This document shows positions 3,854 to 44,760 of a stretch of 44,918 nucleotides of DNA, piece after piece (within the stretch, counting starts at the first letter, position 1; every line of letters starts with the position of its first letter). The stretch is taken from the sequence record OZ035798.1; one strand, given 5' to 3'. Under the pieces are notes generated by a model, which saw only the letters and a program-made list of their open reading frames with translations, was not told where the DNA came from and ran no database searches. The translations under genes were made by a program, and so were the position numbers. The stretch comes from Vectrevirus LI10P3.

Positions 3854-4003
3854 ATGAAAAAGCTGTTCAAATCTAAGAAGGTTGTAGGTGCACTAGTTGC
3901 ATTGGCAATTGCTCTTGTTTCTGTAGGTCTTGGTGTAGACCTTGGCTCTGGCACGGAATCCTCTGTGACAGACGTGGTCTGCCAAGTGATCACCTGTGAA
4001 TAA
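3854..4003 (+). CDS. Small membrane or secreted protein (possible holin/antiholin)
   Basis: 49 aa; AGGGAG RBS; basic N-terminus then hydrophobic stretch VVGALVALAIALVSVGLGV. Confidence 0.4.
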   Translation: MKKLFKSKKVVGALVALAIALVSVGLGVDLGSGTESSVTDVVCQVITCE

Positions 4004-4217
4004 GTTTCTAGAAGTGCTGGCAGGTCTTATTGGCCTGCTTGTCTCTGCTAAGAAGAAACAAGAAGAGAAGGAGGCACAAAGTGAAGCGAATCATGTTAGT
4101 GACAATCCTGCTGATTGGTTCGCTGACCACTTCCGGGTGTCAGCAGGCGTTACCAGAGAAAGCAATGGTGAAACCTCTGAGGCCGACGCTGACGGAAGTT
4201 TACGAGGTAGACGATAA
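3996..4217 (+). CDS. Putative i-spanin (Rz-like), unusually short
   Basis: GTG start; N-terminal hydrophobic segment followed by charged KKKQEEKEAQ region; overlaps the lipoprotein ORF in another frame. Confidence 0.35.
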   Translation: MNKFLEVLAGLIGLLVSAKKKQEEKEAQSEANHVSDNPADWFADHFRVSAGVTRESNGETSEADADGSLRGRR

Positions 4218-4290
4218 GGTCTGCTTTAGTAAGCCTGACGCTACAAAATTAGGTTTGTATATTCTTTCGCTGGAACGCGGATATAATTAA
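4093..4290 (+). CDS. Putative o-spanin lipoprotein (Rz1-like)
   Basis: Signal-like N-terminus ending in lipobox-like LTTSGC, then Pro-rich segment; starts inside 3996..4217 and runs past its stop. Confidence 0.45.
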   Translation: MLVTILLIGSLTTSGCQQALPEKAMVKPLRPTLTEVYEVDDKVCFSKPDATKLGLYILSLERGYN

Positions 4291-4319: not shown

Positions 4320-4342
4320 ATTTACTGGACACTATAGAAGAG
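4320..4342 (+). promoter_or_regulatory. Phage RNAP promoter
   Basis: ATTTACTGGACACTATAGAAGAG, perfect consensus upstream of tailspike 1. Confidence 0.85.
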
Positions 4343-4421: not shown

Positions 4422-6320
4422 ATGGCTAAATTAACCAAACCTAATACTGAAGGAATCTTGCATAAAGGACAATCTTTGTATGAGTACCTTGATGCGAGAG
4501 TTTTAACATCAAAGCCGTTTGGTGCTGTAGGTGACGCCACTACTGATGATACGGAGGTTATAGCTGCTTCATTAAACTCTCAGAAAGCTGTCACAATCTC
4601 AGACGGTGTATTCTCTAGCTCTGGTATTAATAGTAATTACTGTAACTTAGACGGTAGGGGTAGTGGGGTGCTAAGTCACCGTTCCAGTACAGGTAACTAC
4701 TTAGTATTTAACAACCCACGTACAGGTCGCTTAAGTAATATTACGGTAGAAAGTAATAAGGCGACTGATACAACTCAGGGACAGCAGGTATCTCTTGCTG
4801 GTGGAAGTGATGTTACTGTAAGTGACGTTAACTTCTCAAACGTTAAAGGTACTGGTTTCAGTTTAATCGCATACCCTAATGATGCGCCACCTGATGGACT
4901 TATGATTAAAGGCATTCGAGGTAGCTATTCAGGCTATGCTACTAATAAGGCAGCCGGATGCGTACTTGCTGACTCCTCAGTTAACTCCCTCATAGATAAC
5001 GTCATTGCTAAGAACTACCCTCAGTTCGGAGCAGTAGAGTTGAAAGGTACAGCCAGTTACAACATAGTCAGTAATGTTATAGGGGCAGATTGCCAGCATG
5101 TAACTTACAACGGCACTGAAGGGCCAATAGCTCCTTCTAATAACCTTATCAATGGGGTGATGGCTAATAACCCTAAGTATGCAGCGGTTGTTGCAGGCAA
5201 AGGAAGTACGAACTTAATCTCAGACGTGCTCGTAGATTACTCAACTTCTGATGCTAGGCAGGCTCATGGTGTTACAGTAGAGGGTTCTGATAACGTCATA
5301 AATAATGTGCTTATGTCAGGATGTGATGGTACTAACTCTTTAGGACAAGGGCAGACTGCTACAATTGCACGCTTTATAGGTACAGCTAATAACAACTATG
5401 CGTCTGTATTTCCTAGCTACAGTGCTACAGGTGTTATTACTTTCGAATCCGGCTCTACCCGTAACTTCGTAGAGGTAAAGCACCCTGGCAGGAGAAACGA
5501 CCTTCTCAGTTCTGCTAGTACTATTGACGGTGCAGCTACTATTGACGGCACTAGTAATAGTAACGTAGTGCACGCACCTGCCCTAGGGCAGTACATAGGT
5601 AGTATGTCAGGTAGGTTCGAATGGCGGATTAAGTCCATGTCACTCCCTTCAGGCGTTCTTACTTCTGCTGATAAGTACAGAATGCTTGGAGATGGTGCTG
5701 TGTCATTAGCTGTAGGTGGGGGCACTTCTTCTCAAGTTCGCCTATTTACTTCTGATGGTACTTCTCGGACAGTGTCCCTCACCAACGGTAACGTGCGTCT
5801 TTCTACCAGTAGCACAGGCTTTTTGCAGTTAGGTGCTGATGCAATGACCCCAGACAGTACTGGTACATACGCATTAGGTTCCGCCAGTCGAGCATGGTCT
5901 GGCGGTTTTACTCAAGCAGCATTCACTGTTACCTCAGATGCTCGGTGTAAAACAGAACCTCTTACTATCTCAGATGCCTTACTAGATGCTTGGTCTGAAG
6001 TTGACTTTGTGCAGTTTCAGTATTTGGATCGTGTTGAGGAGAAGGGTGCAGACTCAGCTAGATGGCACTTTGGCATCATCGCTCAGCGAGCTAAGGAGGC
6101 CTTCGAACGTCACGGTATAGATGCACATCGCTATGGCTTCTTGTGCTTCGACAGTTGGGATGATGTATACGAGGAAGATGCCAATGGCTCTCGTAAACTG
6201 ATTACACCAGCAGGTTCCCGCTACGGTATTCGTTACGAGGAAGTACTGATATTAGAGGCTGCGTTGATGCGGAGGACTATTAAGCGTATGCAGGAAGCAC
6301 TAGCTTCCCTGCCTAAGTAA
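4422..6320 (+). CDS. Tailspike 1: beta-helix depolymerase with C-terminal intramolecular chaperone (S74-like) domain
   Basis: ATG 4422; N-terminal FGAVGDATTDDTEV pectate-lyase-like motif; Ser/Thr/Gly/Asn-rich core; C-terminal ~128 aa starting at SDARCK (nt 5934). Confidence 0.85.
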   Translation: MAKLTKPNTEGILHKGQSLYEYLDARVLTSKPFGAVGDATTDDTEVIAASLNSQKAVTISDGVFSSSGINSNYCNLDGRGSGVLSHRSSTGNYLVFNNPRTGRLSNITVESNKATDTTQGQQVSLAGGSDVTVSDVNFSNVKGTGFSLIAYPNDAPPDGLMIKGIRGSYSGYATNKAAGCVLADSSVNSLIDNVIAKNYPQFGAVELKGTASYNIVSNVIGADCQHVTYNGTEGPIAPSNNLINGVMANNPKYAAVVAGKGSTNLISDVLVDYSTSDARQAHGVTVEGSDNVINNVLMSGCDGTNSLGQGQTATIARFIGTANNNYASVFPSYSATGVITFESGSTRNFVEVKHPGRRNDLLSSASTIDGAATIDGTSNSNVVHAPALGQYIGSMSGRFEWRIKSMSLPSGVLTSADKYRMLGDGAVSLAVGGGTSSQVRLFTSDGTSRTVSLTNGNVRLSTSSTGFLQLGADAMTPDSTGTYALGSASRAWSGGFTQAAFTVTSDARCKTEPLTISDALLDAWSEVDFVQFQYLDRVEEKGADSARWHFGIIAQRAKEAFERHGIDAHRYGFLCFDSWDDVYEEDANGSRKLITPAGSRYGIRYEEVLILEAALMRRTIKRMQEALASLPK

Positions 6321-6327
6321 GCAACAG

Positions 6328-6350
6328 GCAGTGCGTAAGCACTGCTTTTC
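6328..6350 (+). terminator. Stem-loop with T-run after tailspike 1
   Basis: GCAGTGC-gtaa-GCACTGC followed by TTTT. Confidence 0.5.
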
Positions 6351-6405
6351 ACGCAACTTTTCTTAAAGGTTATCATGGTGGTAGCCTTTCAGAAGAGGAG
6401 GTTAC

Positions 6406-8118
6406 ATGCTTCAAAGATTAAGTGCTTACTTGGTGAAGTACAAGAGTAAACTAACAGGTACTATTGAGCGCCTGCTATCTGATAAACTATCGGATACAAT
6501 AGATGTTGCGGATTTTGGAGTTACTCCATCTTCCAATGACAACAGGCAAGCACTTCAAGCTGCGTTCAATGCAGTCAGAGTGTTAGGCGGTGGCACTGTA
6601 TTAGTCACTAAAGCTGGAAAATACAAACTCAGTGGTACTGTTGAGATATTTGCTAATACACACTTCAAGGTTGCTAAAGGTGTAACATTTGTACGTGACT
6701 ACGAAACAGGAGATACGCTATTCAGATTATCACAAGGGCAAGCTAGTAATGTAACAGTCAGTGGAGGTATCTATGAAGGCAATGGTCACACTAAGGGAGA
6801 TACACCTTTTGTAGTATTTGCATCTACTAGTAATAATGATTTGAAGTTTGAAGGCATAACAGTTAACAATGTAGTGGACTACCACGCCATAGATTTAGCA
6901 GATTGGAACAACGTAGTTATTCGTGATTGTAAATTCCTAGGTTTTAAGAATACAGGCAGTCGTAACTTCTCAGAGGCTATACAGTTAGACCCAGGTCTTA
7001 TTACAGTTGGTCACTATGTACAGTCAAGTGGTATGCTGGTGGAGAATTGCTATGCTGGTCCAAACACAGAATCAGGGTTTGGAGGTTATGGTGCACTAAT
7101 TGGAAATCACGCCTCAGCTTACGGTGTACAGGACAACAATATCCGTATCTTGAATTGCACTACAGATGGTGCTCTCTTTGCAGGTGTACGTGTATTTAAC
7201 TGGAAAAACTGGACAGTGCGTGGTTGCACATTTAGGAACTCTAATGCAAGAGGTGTCCATGTTACACCTTTCTCATCTCAGACTAAACCGCAGGGTACTC
7301 GACAAGGTAGTATTGTAGATTGCACTTTTGATGGCGTAAGGACACCAGTGCTAATTGCTGCACCATCTTGGCCTTTTACCGATATTAGTGACATTTGGCA
7401 TGACCATATTGAAATTTCTAATAATACTATGATCCTCACAGAGGATGTATCCTATGGTGTAGATGCAAGGTGGTGTAAGAATTTAATTGTAAAAGGTAAT
7501 ACAGGCTCTGGTGGCTTAGGGTTAATAGGTTTACGCTTTGGGACAAAATACCACATCGAAGGTAATACTTGGGAAAACGGAAGAGGTAGTGGGATTTGGC
7601 TAGGTGAGTCTGATGCTACTACATTCATTGGTACTGGTTTATCAGGAGAAGGTATACTTAGTCGTAATATCTTCTCTAAATTAGGGCAATATGGTATTCA
7701 TGTAAACTGCAAGGCTAGCGGTCTAGTGATTAAAGCCAATAATATGAAGGAGGTATCTACAGATGAAGCAGGTAGGCACTTCATTAGTATAGACACAGGG
7801 GCTAACAACATCCTAGTAGAAGGTAATATTGGAGTAGATGGAGAAAGCCCTAACAAGCCAAGCCTTGGTATTCGTGTTACTTCTTCTTGTTCCAATATTA
7901 AACTCATTGGCAATGATTGCTATGGCACACAGGCGCCTCAGAATAACCAAGGAGTCGGTTCTAGTACGGTGATTGTTTATGGACTAAATGGCAACCCTAC
8001 AACTTTAGGCGTAGGTGCACCTGTAGGCTCTTTAGCAACTGATATCAATGGTTCTGGTGGTAGTACATTGTACGTTAAAGAATCTGGTACATCTGCTCAA
8101 GGTTGGGTTGCAAAGTAG
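6406..8118 (+). CDS. Tailspike 2: pectate-lyase-superfamily beta-helix depolymerase
   Basis: 570 aa; GAGGAGG RBS; N-terminal DVADFGVTPSSNDNRQALQAAFNA motif; repetitive Gly/Asn-rich beta-helix-like sequence. Confidence 0.8.
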   Translation: MLQRLSAYLVKYKSKLTGTIERLLSDKLSDTIDVADFGVTPSSNDNRQALQAAFNAVRVLGGGTVLVTKAGKYKLSGTVEIFANTHFKVAKGVTFVRDYETGDTLFRLSQGQASNVTVSGGIYEGNGHTKGDTPFVVFASTSNNDLKFEGITVNNVVDYHAIDLADWNNVVIRDCKFLGFKNTGSRNFSEAIQLDPGLITVGHYVQSSGMLVENCYAGPNTESGFGGYGALIGNHASAYGVQDNNIRILNCTTDGALFAGVRVFNWKNWTVRGCTFRNSNARGVHVTPFSSQTKPQGTRQGSIVDCTFDGVRTPVLIAAPSWPFTDISDIWHDHIEISNNTMILTEDVSYGVDARWCKNLIVKGNTGSGGLGLIGLRFGTKYHIEGNTWENGRGSGIWLGESDATTFIGTGLSGEGILSRNIFSKLGQYGIHVNCKASGLVIKANNMKEVSTDEAGRHFISIDTGANNILVEGNIGVDGESPNKPSLGIRVTSSCSNIKLIGNDCYGTQAPQNNQGVGSSTVIVYGLNGNPTTLGVGAPVGSLATDINGSGGSTLYVKESGTSAQGWVAK

Positions 8119-8129
8119 TAGGAAGTTGA

Positions 8130-8273
8130 ATGCCATTAATCAAATCAGTTAAGCAAAGTGCTGTACGCCAGAACACAGAAGAGCTTATTCAATCAGGACG
8201 TGACCCTAAGCAAGCTTATGCCATTGCCAAGGATGTTCAACGTCGTGCCTTGAAGAAACCTTCTGCATCTTAA
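8130..8273 (+). CDS. Small basic hypothetical protein (47 aa)
   Basis: AGGAAG RBS; compact ORF filling the gap before the HNH gene. Confidence 0.35.
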   Translation: MPLIKSVKQSAVRQNTEELIQSGRDPKQAYAIAKDVQRRALKKPSAS

Positions 8274-8284
8274 AGGAGATTGAT

Positions 8285-8659
8285 ATGGAAACGTGGGTAA
8301 CTGTCCCTGGCTACCCACGGTATCAAGTGTCTACTCATGGATGTGTCAAATCACTCATTGGTAATCACAAGATACTGAAGCCGGGCAAGTCAAAGAGTGG
8401 GTATTTGAACGTAGTTCTTAGTAATGAGGAAGGCAAGAAGACATTCCGTGTGCATCGCTTGGTTGCACTGTGTCATTTGCCTAATCCTCATAATCTTCCC
8501 TTAGTGAACCACAAGGATGAAGACAAGGCACATAATCATGTAGACAATTTAGAGTGGTGTACTGAAGAGTACAATCTCAAGTATTCACGTGACTACGATA
8601 GGTCTTCTCTTAGTGTAACCCAAGGACAGAAGAAGGTATGGCTTCCAGTAGACCTGTAA
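8285..8659 (+). CDS. HNH homing endonuclease (NUMOD4-like N-terminus)
   Basis: AAGGAG RBS; WVTVPGYPRYQVSTHGCV then VNHKDEDKAHNHVDNLEW; paralog of 331..774. Confidence 0.8.
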   Translation: METWVTVPGYPRYQVSTHGCVKSLIGNHKILKPGKSKSGYLNVVLSNEEGKKTFRVHRLVALCHLPNPHNLPLVNHKDEDKAHNHVDNLEWCTEEYNLKYSRDYDRSSLSVTQGQKKVWLPVDL

Positions 8660-8699: not shown

Positions 8700-8860
8700 T
8701 CAGCTCTCTCGCCCTCGCCCTCGCCGGATTTCCCCCATATAGGGCCGCGCTGCGGTTGGCTTGGGAATTGGGCTGGGCTGGTCCGTCTTCAACCTGCTGC
8801 CGCAGGAAGCTCGACGGGTGGCCTAGGGCTTGCCGAGGTCTGCTCTTAGTGGCTGCACAA
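8700..8860 (+). other. GC-rich non-coding block, probable genome-terminus / terminal-repeat region
   Basis: Composition differs sharply from the rest of the window; no ORF on either strand; lies between the last late gene and the first early gene. Confidence 0.35.
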
Positions 8861-9039
8861 GGAGAACTCCTAGGAAGCGCTAGGGTACGCCTTAGTATTG
8901 GACAAGGTGATTGCCTTAGTTCAACCGCTTAGGGCTTACACGGGCCGTTTTAGGGCCATTCCTGAGCGTTTGACAGGGTGTGAGGGCGTGGACTATCTGT
9001 TCGTTTCGTTCACTCCGCTTGCGCTACGTTCACTCGCTC

Positions 9040-43600: not shown

Positions 43601-43798
43601 AAGGGTTTGATAGACCAAATACCACTAGTAGGTGTTGGTCAAGATGCATATCGTTTAGCAGATTCTATAACTAAATATGCAGAGGGTGATACAGAAGGTG
43701 TAGATGTGGCACGTAGGGCTTTACGCTTAGTGCCTCTAACTAATGTAATAGGAATCCAGAACGCATTGCGTTATGGCTTAGATGAACTGGAGGATTGA
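40601..43798 (+). CDS. Large internal virion / core protein
   Basis: 1065 aa; GGAGGA RBS; position after the other internal proteins. Confidence 0.75.
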   Translation: MEQDIKTNWAGYVQSTPEPFSIEAAPVSAPTIRQRNELQEQVLEAKADADILGAVGAAFQNEWLAFGGKRWYDRATADFTPQPDFEIQPEQREALRFKYGTDMMQTITEGVRSEDELNFRIQNADEDLERNKRITQAGWVGSVATIGAAVLDPVGWVASIPTGGAAKVGLVGRAVRGAIAAGVSNAAIESVLVQSDMTRDLDDIMVALGSGMAMGGVIGAVARGRATKLSEQGDDRAASIVRSADAGDRYVRAVADDSIGAMRVKGEEVLTEGAFDISSKGEDLLKTLQREGNSIDMTPRRWAGTMSALGTVVHSSHDASVRGLGARLFESPQGLGMQKASASLMQNTNLNRLKSADMNRFNDGFDLWLKENNINPVAGHTNSHYVQQYNEKVWEAVRIGMDESTPKSIRMAAEGQQAMYREALALRKRSGEAGFENIKADNKYMPDIFDTMKARRQFDRIGKDIDKEDIIELFSRAYQNGARKIPKEVADEIARAQVNRVVDATLTGRMSFEKAMSGQTKAEYEAIMRKAGFSDEEIEKMVEALDNKETRDNISNRAKMSLGLDVTQEYNGIRMRDFMNTNVEELTDNYMKEAAGGAALARQGFSTYQAALNAIDLVERNARNAAKDSKASLALDEEIRQMREGLRLIMGKSIDVDPQALSTKMLRRGRDITGVLRLGQMGFAQLGELANFMGEFGIAATTIALGKQFRFTSKALRSGDGFFRDKNLAEVERMVGYIGEDNWLTTKGARPDEFGDVTTVKGMMAHFDQSMNSIRRAQTNLSLFRMAQGSLERMTNRQIALSFIDHLEGKKIIPQKKLEELGLTQEFMTNLQKHYDANSKGSGLLGFDTMPYAMGETLANAIRRKSGLIIQRNFIGDEGIWMNKALGKTFAQLKSFSLVSGEKQFGRGIRHDKIGLAKKTAYGFALGSIVYAAKAYVNSIGREDQDEYLEEKLSPKGLAFGAMGMMSTTAVFSLGGDFLGGLGVLPSELVQSRYEAGFQTKGLIDQIPLVGVGQDAYRLADSITKYAEGDTEGVDVARRALRLVPLTNVIGIQNALRYGLDELED

Positions 43799-44760
43799 TG
43801 AGTTATACTTTCACAGAACATATAGCCAACGGTACGCAAGTAACCTATCCCTTTAGATTTGCTGGCAGGGATAAAGGCTATCTTCGTGCCTCAGATGTGA
43901 TAGTGGAATCTCTTCAAGGTAACACTTGGATTGAGGTTACATCTGGCTGGCAACTAACTGGCACGCACCAGATTACTTTTGATGTAGCACCAGTTGCAGG
44001 TTTGAAGTTCCGTATTCGAAGGGAAGTACAAAAGGAGTATCCATACGCTGAGTTTGACCGTGGTGTTACCTTGGATATGAAGTCTTTAAATGGTTCTTTC
44101 ATTCATATACTGGAGATTACACAGGAGTTACTTGACGGGTTTTATCCAGAAGGATACTTCATTAAACAGAATGTAAGCTGGGGCGGCAATAAGATTACTG
44201 ATTTGGCTGATGGCACAAATCCTGGAGATGCAGTAAATAAAGGGCAGCTTGATGCCATCGACAAGAAGCATACAGATTGGAACGCCAAACAGGACATTGA
44301 GATTGCTGGCCTTAAGGCTGGTATGACTTCTGGTATTGCGCACAGAACTGTTCCTTGGTACACGATAGCCAAAGGTGGTGAGATTTCCGTAAAACCACCT
44401 TATGAATTTCAAGATGCACTAGTTTTCCTTAATGGGGTGTTGCAGCACCAAATTGTAGGCGCATACTCTATAAGCAACAACACTATCACTTTCGCAGAGC
44501 CGCTTGTGGCGGGTACAGAGGTGTATGTGCTGATTGGTAGTCGTGTGGCTACATCTGAACCTAATATTCAGTTAGAGTTGAACTTTGACTTAGTAGAAGG
44601 CCAACAAGTAGTACAGATTGGCTCTGCATTTAAGTACATTGAGGTCTACCTTGATGGATTATTACAACCTAAACTTGCTTATCAGGTAGACGGTGACATT
44701 GTTACTTTCTCAGAAAGAGTACCAGAATGCCGGATGACTGCTAAGATTATCACAGCATAA
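43798..44760 (+). CDS. Tail-fibre adaptor protein (T7 gp17 N-terminal-domain-like)
   Basis: ATGA coupling with the upstream gene; 320 aa; N-terminus has the gp17 tail-attachment pattern; likely anchors the two tailspikes. Confidence 0.75.
   Translation: MSYTFTEHIANGTQVTYPFRFAGRDKGYLRASDVIVESLQGNTWIEVTSGWQLTGTHQITFDVAPVAGLKFRIRREVQKEYPYAEFDRGVTLDMKSLNGSFIHILEITQELLDGFYPEGYFIKQNVSWGGNKITDLADGTNPGDAVNKGQLDAIDKKHTDWNAKQDIEIAGLKAGMTSGIAHRTVPWYTIAKGGEISVKPPYEFQDALVFLNGVLQHQIVGAYSISNNTITFAEPLVAGTEVYVLIGSRVATSEPNIQLELNFDLVEGQQVVQIGSAFKYIEVYLDGLLQPKLAYQVDGDIVTFSERVPECRMTAKIITA

Follow-up and report, generated by a model that had tools for sequence, protein, structure and literature searches.

We analysed the tailspike locus of Vectrevirus LI10P3 (phage LI10_P3, sequence record OZ035798.1), taking as the window the whole stretch of DNA, 44,918 nucleotides in length. 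Two adjacent tailspike genes lie 3' of the lysis genes, in the region 4422-8118, and a separate gene codes for a gp37-type adaptor (Table 1). The window is a circular permutation of a linear Vectrevirus genome, with the left end of K1-5 (from nucleotide 105) and the 234-bp terminal repeat mapping to about 8740-8995, and it is because of this permutation that the adaptor gene is found at the far end of the window and the tailspike genes near its start. The physical ends of the genome are thus placed in a stretch, 8740-8995, that is poor in open reading frames (ORFs). At the DNA level the region 4422-8118 is 96-99% identical to 16 further full-length matches, phage LL11 among them; the match to K1-5 is confined to the tailspike 1 gene and its flanks. 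Taken as a whole, the region and the adaptor gene very probably form the receptor-recognition module of a K1-5-like podovirus of the genus Vectrevirus.

Table 1. Features of the tailspike locus and adaptor gene of LI10_P3, in window coordinates
Feature	Coordinates	Strand	Description
Phage-RNA-polymerase promoter for the tailspike genes	4320..4342	+	ATTTACTGGACACTATAGAAGAG; exact core GGACACTATAGAAGAG at 4327-4342
Tailspike 1, K5 capsule (heparosan) lyase KflA / K1-5 gp46 homologue	4422..6320	+	632 amino acids, 66.8 kDa precursor; 626/632 identical to gp46; ATG 4422, stop 6318-6320
N-terminal adaptor-binding peptide of tailspike 1, about residues 1-30	4422..4511	+	9VVR alignment starts at residue 31
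Intramolecular chaperone domain (Peptidase_S74) of tailspike 1, residues 505-632	5934..6317	+	14.7 kDa; PF13884; predicted autoproteolytic release at S505
GC-rich hairpin, terminator-like	6328..6349	+	GCAGTGC-GTAA-GCACTGC, then TTTT; in the 85-nucleotide spacer between the tailspike genes
Tailspike 2, right-handed beta-helix, gp47 (endosialidase) slot	6406..8118	+	570 amino acids, 60.6 kDa; ATG 6406, stop 8116-8118
N-terminal adaptor-binding peptide of tailspike 2, residues 1-38	6406..6519	+	20/38 identical to K1-5 gp47; similarity stops there
K1-5 gp48 homologue, small conserved gene	8130..8273	+	47 amino acids; 94% DNA identity to K1-5 43758-43905
Adaptor, K1-5/SP6 gp37 type	43798..44760	+	320 amino acids; PF03906 (Phage_T7_tail) residues 4-154; phrog_2710 residues 1-320

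The adaptor-mediated dual tailspike apparatus of phages K1-5, K1E and SP6 reportedly goes back to Leiman et al. in 2007. LI10_P3 shares with this apparatus the separate gp37-type adaptor, the adjacent tailspike pair, the conserved spacer and the short, slot-specific N-terminal docking peptides. It differs from K1-5 in the second slot, which here holds a 570-residue beta-helix protein without a self-cleaving chaperone domain, as against an 811-residue beta-propeller endosialidase in K1-5. The adaptor and two-spike model, together with its exchangeable cassettes, has been described for K1-5, K1E and SP6 (PMC5380687), and the same tailspike gene pair is annotated and discussed likewise in LL11. 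The two-spike adaptor architecture, the K5 lyase, the self-cleaving chaperone domain and this genome itself are therefore already published, and the substrate and chemistry of tailspike 2 are the sole unexplored element of the module.

The ATG of the adaptor gene, at 43798, overlaps the TGA of the preceding gene, and 159 podovirus records, across Vectrevirus and related genera, have a homologue at the equivalent place. The protein aligns just with positions 1-322 of the 781-position tail-fibre family phrog_2710, and thus comes without a distal receptor-binding part. Such an adaptor would be anchored to the tail by its T7-gp17-like N-terminal domain and would present docking sites for two different trimeric tailspikes, each docking by a short N-terminal peptide, as judged from near-identity to characterised proteins. 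The length of the peptide in tailspike 1 can be gauged from PDB entry 9VVR, in which a related spike body is carried by a different, 241-residue N-terminus of the T7-fibre type: similarity begins only at residue 31, which leaves about 30 residues for docking. A first-pass annotation of this DNA, made from the sequence alone, had proposed a K1-5/SP6 architecture from two consecutive tailspikes of 632 and 570 amino acids with short N-terminal anchors only and from an adaptor resembling the N-terminus of gp17. The ORF listing agrees with the lengths and positions of the two tailspikes, the 320-residue adaptor ORF with its PF03906 match fits the third gene, the two anchors are short (the body of the first spike sets in at residue 31, and the anchor of the second ends at residue 38), so that the proposed architecture holds.

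Tailspike 1 is, by its 99% identity, KflA or K1-5 gp46 itself, and we met with no counter-evidence to this identity or to that of the adaptor. The K5 lyase KflA of coliphages K5A and K1-5 is reportedly the subject of work by Scholl et al. in 2001 and Thompson et al. in 2010. Residues 1-505 align to the "K5 lyase" of PDB entry 2X3H (KflA of K5A, E = 0), and phrog_14895 is matched across all of residues 1-632 of 632. The K1-5 protein is likewise 632 residues long and has the same N-terminal anchor, beta-helix body and chaperone domain with S505 and K510; only six substitutions separate the two (A36V, V59I, L99P, A101T, T222A and K243N), none of them in the chaperone domain. Given this closeness to a characterised enzyme, the beta-helix of tailspike 1 would cleave the heparosan (K5) capsule by beta-elimination.

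The C-terminal part of tailspike 1 is a domain of the MEROPS S74 (PF13884) family of chaperones, which is said to go back to Schwarzer in 2007 and Schulz in 2010. It opens with the motif SDARCK (residues 505-510, S505 being encoded by nucleotides 5934-5936). The PF13884 model (Peptidase_S74, "Chaperone of endosialidase") matches residues 505-565 with 54.4 bits, against a cutoff of 22, and in alignments to 3GUD and 3GW6 the homology reaches residue 630. S505 and K510 align with the catalytic S911 (replaced in the S911A mutant) and K916 of endosialidase NF (endoNF, 3GW6), with the SDERHK that opens the GA-1 chaperone structure (3GUD) and with the Ser/Lys pair of T5 pb1 (4UW8), and R490, in the segment LGSASRAW, stands opposite the conserved upstream sensor Arg (the "snRf" segment of endoNF). 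With endoNF, GA-1 gp12 and T5 pb1, tailspike 1 thus has in common the Ser-x4-Lys dyad, the upstream Arg of the "LGSxxxRW" type and a domain of about 128 residues that follows a triple-beta-helix stalk; there is no difference of substance, the Cys between Arg and Lys in SDARCK being replaced by Asp in the 9VVR relative. C-terminal domains differ in some related proteins, such as the phi92 endosialidase and some fibres. The C-terminal 128 residues of tailspike 1 would nucleate the trimerisation of the preceding triple beta-helix, after which the chaperone would cut itself off at S505, with K510 as the base, to give a mature spike of 52 kDa. In T5 pb1 an Arg of the neighbouring chain senses correct folding of the trimer and the Lys activates the Ser, and K1-5 and K5 are among the phages presumed to use this mechanism (PMC4690869).

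By computation, the precursor has a mass of 66.8 kDa, residues 1-505 one of 52.1 kDa and residues 505-632 one of 14.7 kDa, which matches the published entry for K1-5 ORF46 in a review table ("67/mature form 52/trimer", PMC5380687) and supports processing of tailspike 1. It is hardly credible that the C-terminal module is instead kept, uncleaved, as a permanent receptor-binding or stabilising domain: nothing in our analysis spoke for such a role, the protein keeps the catalytic Ser as well as the Lys and the sensor Arg, and the crystallised protein, which is 99% identical, stops at S505, in keeping with the 52-kDa mature form of K1-5 ORF46 (PMC5380687). The 2X3H chain ends exactly at S505 and so retains this residue, unlike T5 pb1 and K1F, in which the serine leaves with the chaperone (PMC4690869). 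The scissile bond may thus lie on either side of S505. The first-pass annotation had read the C-terminus correctly, as a self-cleaving module of about 128 residues starting at SDARCK with the signature of a Ser-Lys dyad, a reading that the Pfam match and the alignment of S505, K510 and R490 to 3GW6, 3GUD and 4UW8 now substantiate at the level of sequence. What it had missed is that the protein is KflA, and the experiments that it had proposed for tailspike 1 have in effect already been done, since the near-identical KflA has both a structure and a published 67 to 52 kDa processing.

Tailspike 2 takes the place of the K1-5 endosialidase. Across the spacer and roughly the first 55 nucleotides of the gene, the window DNA is nearly identical to that of K1-5; it then diverges, and the similarity resumes at the gp48 homologue (8130-8273). 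By this comparison tailspike 2 is an exchangeable cassette, with the conserved spacer and the anchor codons as its 5' edge and the gp48 homologue marking its 3' boundary. The gene product matches the generic Beta_helix model of Pfam (E 2e-12) and a tail-spike family of PHROG (E 1e-57). An AlphaFold model built from 13 sequences (predicted local distance difference test score, pLDDT, 85; predicted template modelling score, pTM, 0.86) shows a beta-helix that runs unbroken from about residue 31 to about residue 524, with low confidence at the N-terminal peptide (residues 1-30, pLDDT 43-53) and in the last 45 or so residues. The body is thus confidently predicted as a right-handed parallel beta-helix without a releasable chaperone domain, and the term "depolymerase-like" in the first-pass annotation holds for the fold only. 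Searches of Pfam, NCBIfam and PDB sequences gave no specific catalytic family; H160, D163, E190, Q193, D195 and H235 are invariant on the helix, and no placement of these residues in an active site was achieved. The C-terminal segment (window 7981-8115, residues about 526-570; GAPVGS..D(G/I)..G..TLYVKESGT...GWVAK) is kept even in homologues of 26-33% identity. The monomer model gives this segment low confidence, and it may serve as a trimerisation cap whose folding requires the trimer. Tailspike 2 would fold without a releasable chaperone and give the phage a second host specificity.

Tailspike 2 was found in only 21 of 50,697 phage records, all of at least 94% nucleotide identity and from E. 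coli or Klebsiella hosts, and the next phage matches, from phages of Bacillus, Streptomyces and Staphylococcus, fall below 32% identity. The closest relatives, CPT_LL11_053 of LL11 and its copies in 6948, EEc2, Sem1-4, EC120, T147_P1/7/9/10 and others, share 96-99.8% of amino acids and the same genomic position, and none of them has been characterised. The LL11 genome announcement describes CPT_LL11_053 as "distantly related to K1 endosialidase" and suggests that it might add a second host specificity; the relation to the endosialidase holds for the N-terminal anchor alone. In homologues of 45-52% identity from metagenomes and prophages, the body of tailspike 2 is joined to N-termini of the P22 head-binding (PF09008) or CBA120-type tailspike (PF18668) families, an arrangement typical of module shuffling. 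PfbA of Streptococcus pneumoniae (3ZPP/4MR0) and spikes of Gram-positive phages (SPO1 gp18.3 and relatives) resemble tailspike 2 in fold and in the first half of the beta-helix, with a segment like SEAIQLDP, at just 23-29% identity; since PfbA is an adhesin and none of these phage spikes has been characterised, no function can be transferred. In one record, that of KMB47 (OR424385.1), a 55-nucleotide tandem duplication at about 2415-2500, right after the anchor codons (window about 6490), frameshifts tailspike 2, which is annotated there as two fragments; this may have arisen in assembly, or it may be a genuine change that inactivates the gene or affects its regulation.

A lead to the target of tailspike 2 comes from published host ranges. 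LI10_P3 was isolated on strain LI10, of sequence type (ST) 131, serotype O25:H4 and ABC capsule type K2 (Gaborieau et al. preprint). The host-range data used here (Supplementary Tables 1 and 3 of this preprint) cover 49 of the phage columns, LI10_P3 not among them; 283 strain rows were compared in full for the K2 statistics, and strains ECOR-46 and LI10 stand outside these rows. Four Vectreviruses isolated on another strain, T147_P1, P7, P9 and P10, carry tailspike 2 at 96-97% amino-acid identity and no KflA, and all four infect LI10. Their first slot (509-2401 of the T147 records) codes for a 630-residue beta-helix-like protein that is unrelated to KflA and shares with it just the N-terminal MA[KR]LT[KR]P, which suggests that the docking signal of slot 1 is very short. 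The host range that goes with this first-slot tailspike tracks K5 and O6 strains.

Of the 10 strains typed K2, 9 give both T147_P9 and T147_P10 a score of 1 or higher (ECOR-46, ECOR-66, IAI67, NILS42, NILS58, NILS65, NILS73, NILS74 and LI10), in O1, O4, O6, O25, O75, O107 and O-negative backgrounds, that is, across seven O-type designations. Within the 283 rows, 7 of 8 K2 strains are positive as compared with 19 of 275 non-K2 strains (Fisher test, p = 1.8e-7). The non-K2 positives are mostly K5 or O6 strains that the unrelated Kayfunavirus T147_P5 scores as well, and they thus reflect another receptor. Once all T147_P5-positive strains are dropped, six positives are left in these rows: four are K2 strains, and the other two are ST131 strains typed "5". 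Outside these rows, ECOR-46 and LI10 show this pattern too. Five Vectreviruses that have KflA and no tailspike 2 (T205_P4/5, PDP21_P3/6 and DIJ06_P1) score on none of the 10 K2 strains and on 15 of 16 K5 strains, the latter being consistent with the K5 lyase activity predicted for tailspike 1.

Since LI10 is an O25:H4 strain that has also yielded O25b-type Kayfunaviruses, tailspike 2 could be thought to target an O-antigen, for instance the O25b of its ST131 host, as beta-helix spikes of the P22, HK620 and CBA120 types do. The PF09008 and PF18668 N-termini of the homologues of 45-52% identity belong to architectures usually tied to O-antigen-specific spikes, and HK620 and CBA120 TSP3 are among the Foldseek neighbours of tailspike 2. 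Against this stand the scores on K2 strains of seven O-type designations, a score of 0 for the tailspike 2 phages on four O25 strains without K2 (ECOR-52, ECOR-54, H1-001-0093-R-A and NILS01), and a lack of similarity between tailspike 2 and the receptor-binding protein of the LM33_P1 type. An O-antigen target is thus quite unlikely, and O25b was rejected as the main one, because the K2-linked activity crosses O types and fails on O25 strains that lack K2.

Another explanation is that tailspike 2 is a non-enzymatic binder or an esterase/deacetylase, or a vestigial spike, the activity on K2 strains then coming from some other shared factor. We consider this rather unlikely: the full-length ORF is conserved at 96% amino-acid identity or above in 20 of the 21 records, its helix carries the invariant His, Asp, Glu and Gln residues listed above, LI10_P3 came from a strain that is not K5, where KflA should be of no use, and the LI10 and T147 phages have tailspike 2 in common but differ in their first-slot tailspike.

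On these host ranges, we put at about an even chance the reading that tailspike 2 targets the E. coli K2 capsule. Several observations weigh against it. The host range is drawn from the T147 phages and not from scores of LI10_P3 itself, and the K2 strains mostly score 1, the lowest grade, which may reflect clearing without productive infection. T147_P1 and T147_P7, with the same tailspike 2, miss five of the K2 strains, the K2 strain NILS75 is negative for all four T147 phages, and the same pattern appears on the two ST131 strains typed "5" and not K2. The best structural neighbour of tailspike 2 is PfbA, an adhesin, and no enzyme class can be assigned. Finally, KMB47, whose host is the K2 strain CFT073, has its tailspike 2 frameshifted by the 55-nucleotide duplication.

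KMB47 was also considered as independent support for K2; with the deposited tailspike 2 frameshifted, the case is ambiguous. As for the capsule type "5" strains, NILS55 and NILS64 (ST131, O25:H4, with the ABC locus "5" flagged as incomplete) show a weak pattern restricted to T147_P9 and P10, as on K2 strains, and the locus typed "5" in ST131 may therefore resemble that of K2 or derive from it.

The K2 capsule is a teichoic-acid-like polymer of galactosyl-glycerol-phosphate. Such a chemistry would fit with the sole distant relatives of tailspike 2 being spikes of Gram-positive phages. A literature search found no report that assigns a K2-specific coliphage spike or characterises the sister phages (KMB47, 101101UKE1 and others), and the published study of K2 in CFT073 concerns other phages. 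Whether tailspike 2 is the first depolymerase or receptor-binding protein to be identified molecularly for the group 2 K2 capsule of E. coli is, in our judgement, evenly balanced.

The promoter core GGACACTATAGAAGAG, which we take to be the K1-5/SP6 promoter consensus, has 12 exact sites in the window, all on the + strand, as compared with 0.41 expected by chance, and an AGGAG ribosome-binding site lies 6 nucleotides 5' of the tailspike 1 ATG. The 85-nucleotide intergenic spacer is nearly identical in the window, K1-5 and LL11, and the LL11 record has a terminator annotated at the position equivalent to the hairpin. The gp48-equivalent gene is annotated in both LL11 and K1-5. Between the gp48 homologue and the genome end lies a NUMOD4/HNH homing-endonuclease-like gene (8285-8659, 124 amino acids) at a site with no K1-5 counterpart, the right end of K1-5 aligning to 8124-8271 and resuming from 8667; the HNH gene at the equivalent site of LL11 codes for 153 amino acids, and the shorter copy here may thus be truncated. 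On the other side of the tailspike genes, a 73-residue ORF (phrog_9219, E 6.5e-33), whose product has a hydrophobic helix at its N-terminus and a charged tail, overlaps, in another frame, an o-spanin gene with a lipobox (phrog_8971), and the two ORFs, 3996-4217 and 4081-4290, look like an i-spanin/o-spanin pair. LL11 and K1-5 annotate a different partner for the o-spanin, a 49-residue ORF farther upstream.

If tailspike 2 does recognise K2, LI10_P3 would be a natural phage of dual K5 and K2 specificity. K2 is common in lineages of extraintestinal pathogenic E. coli, such as ST131, ST73 and CFT073, and a K2-specific spike would be a new tool to type, or to strip, the capsule of uropathogenic and bloodstream E. 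coli (ST131, ST73), as well as a new module with which to engineer the host range of phages. It would also provide a further example of the swapping of capsule-specificity cassettes at a fixed site of the Vectrevirus genome.

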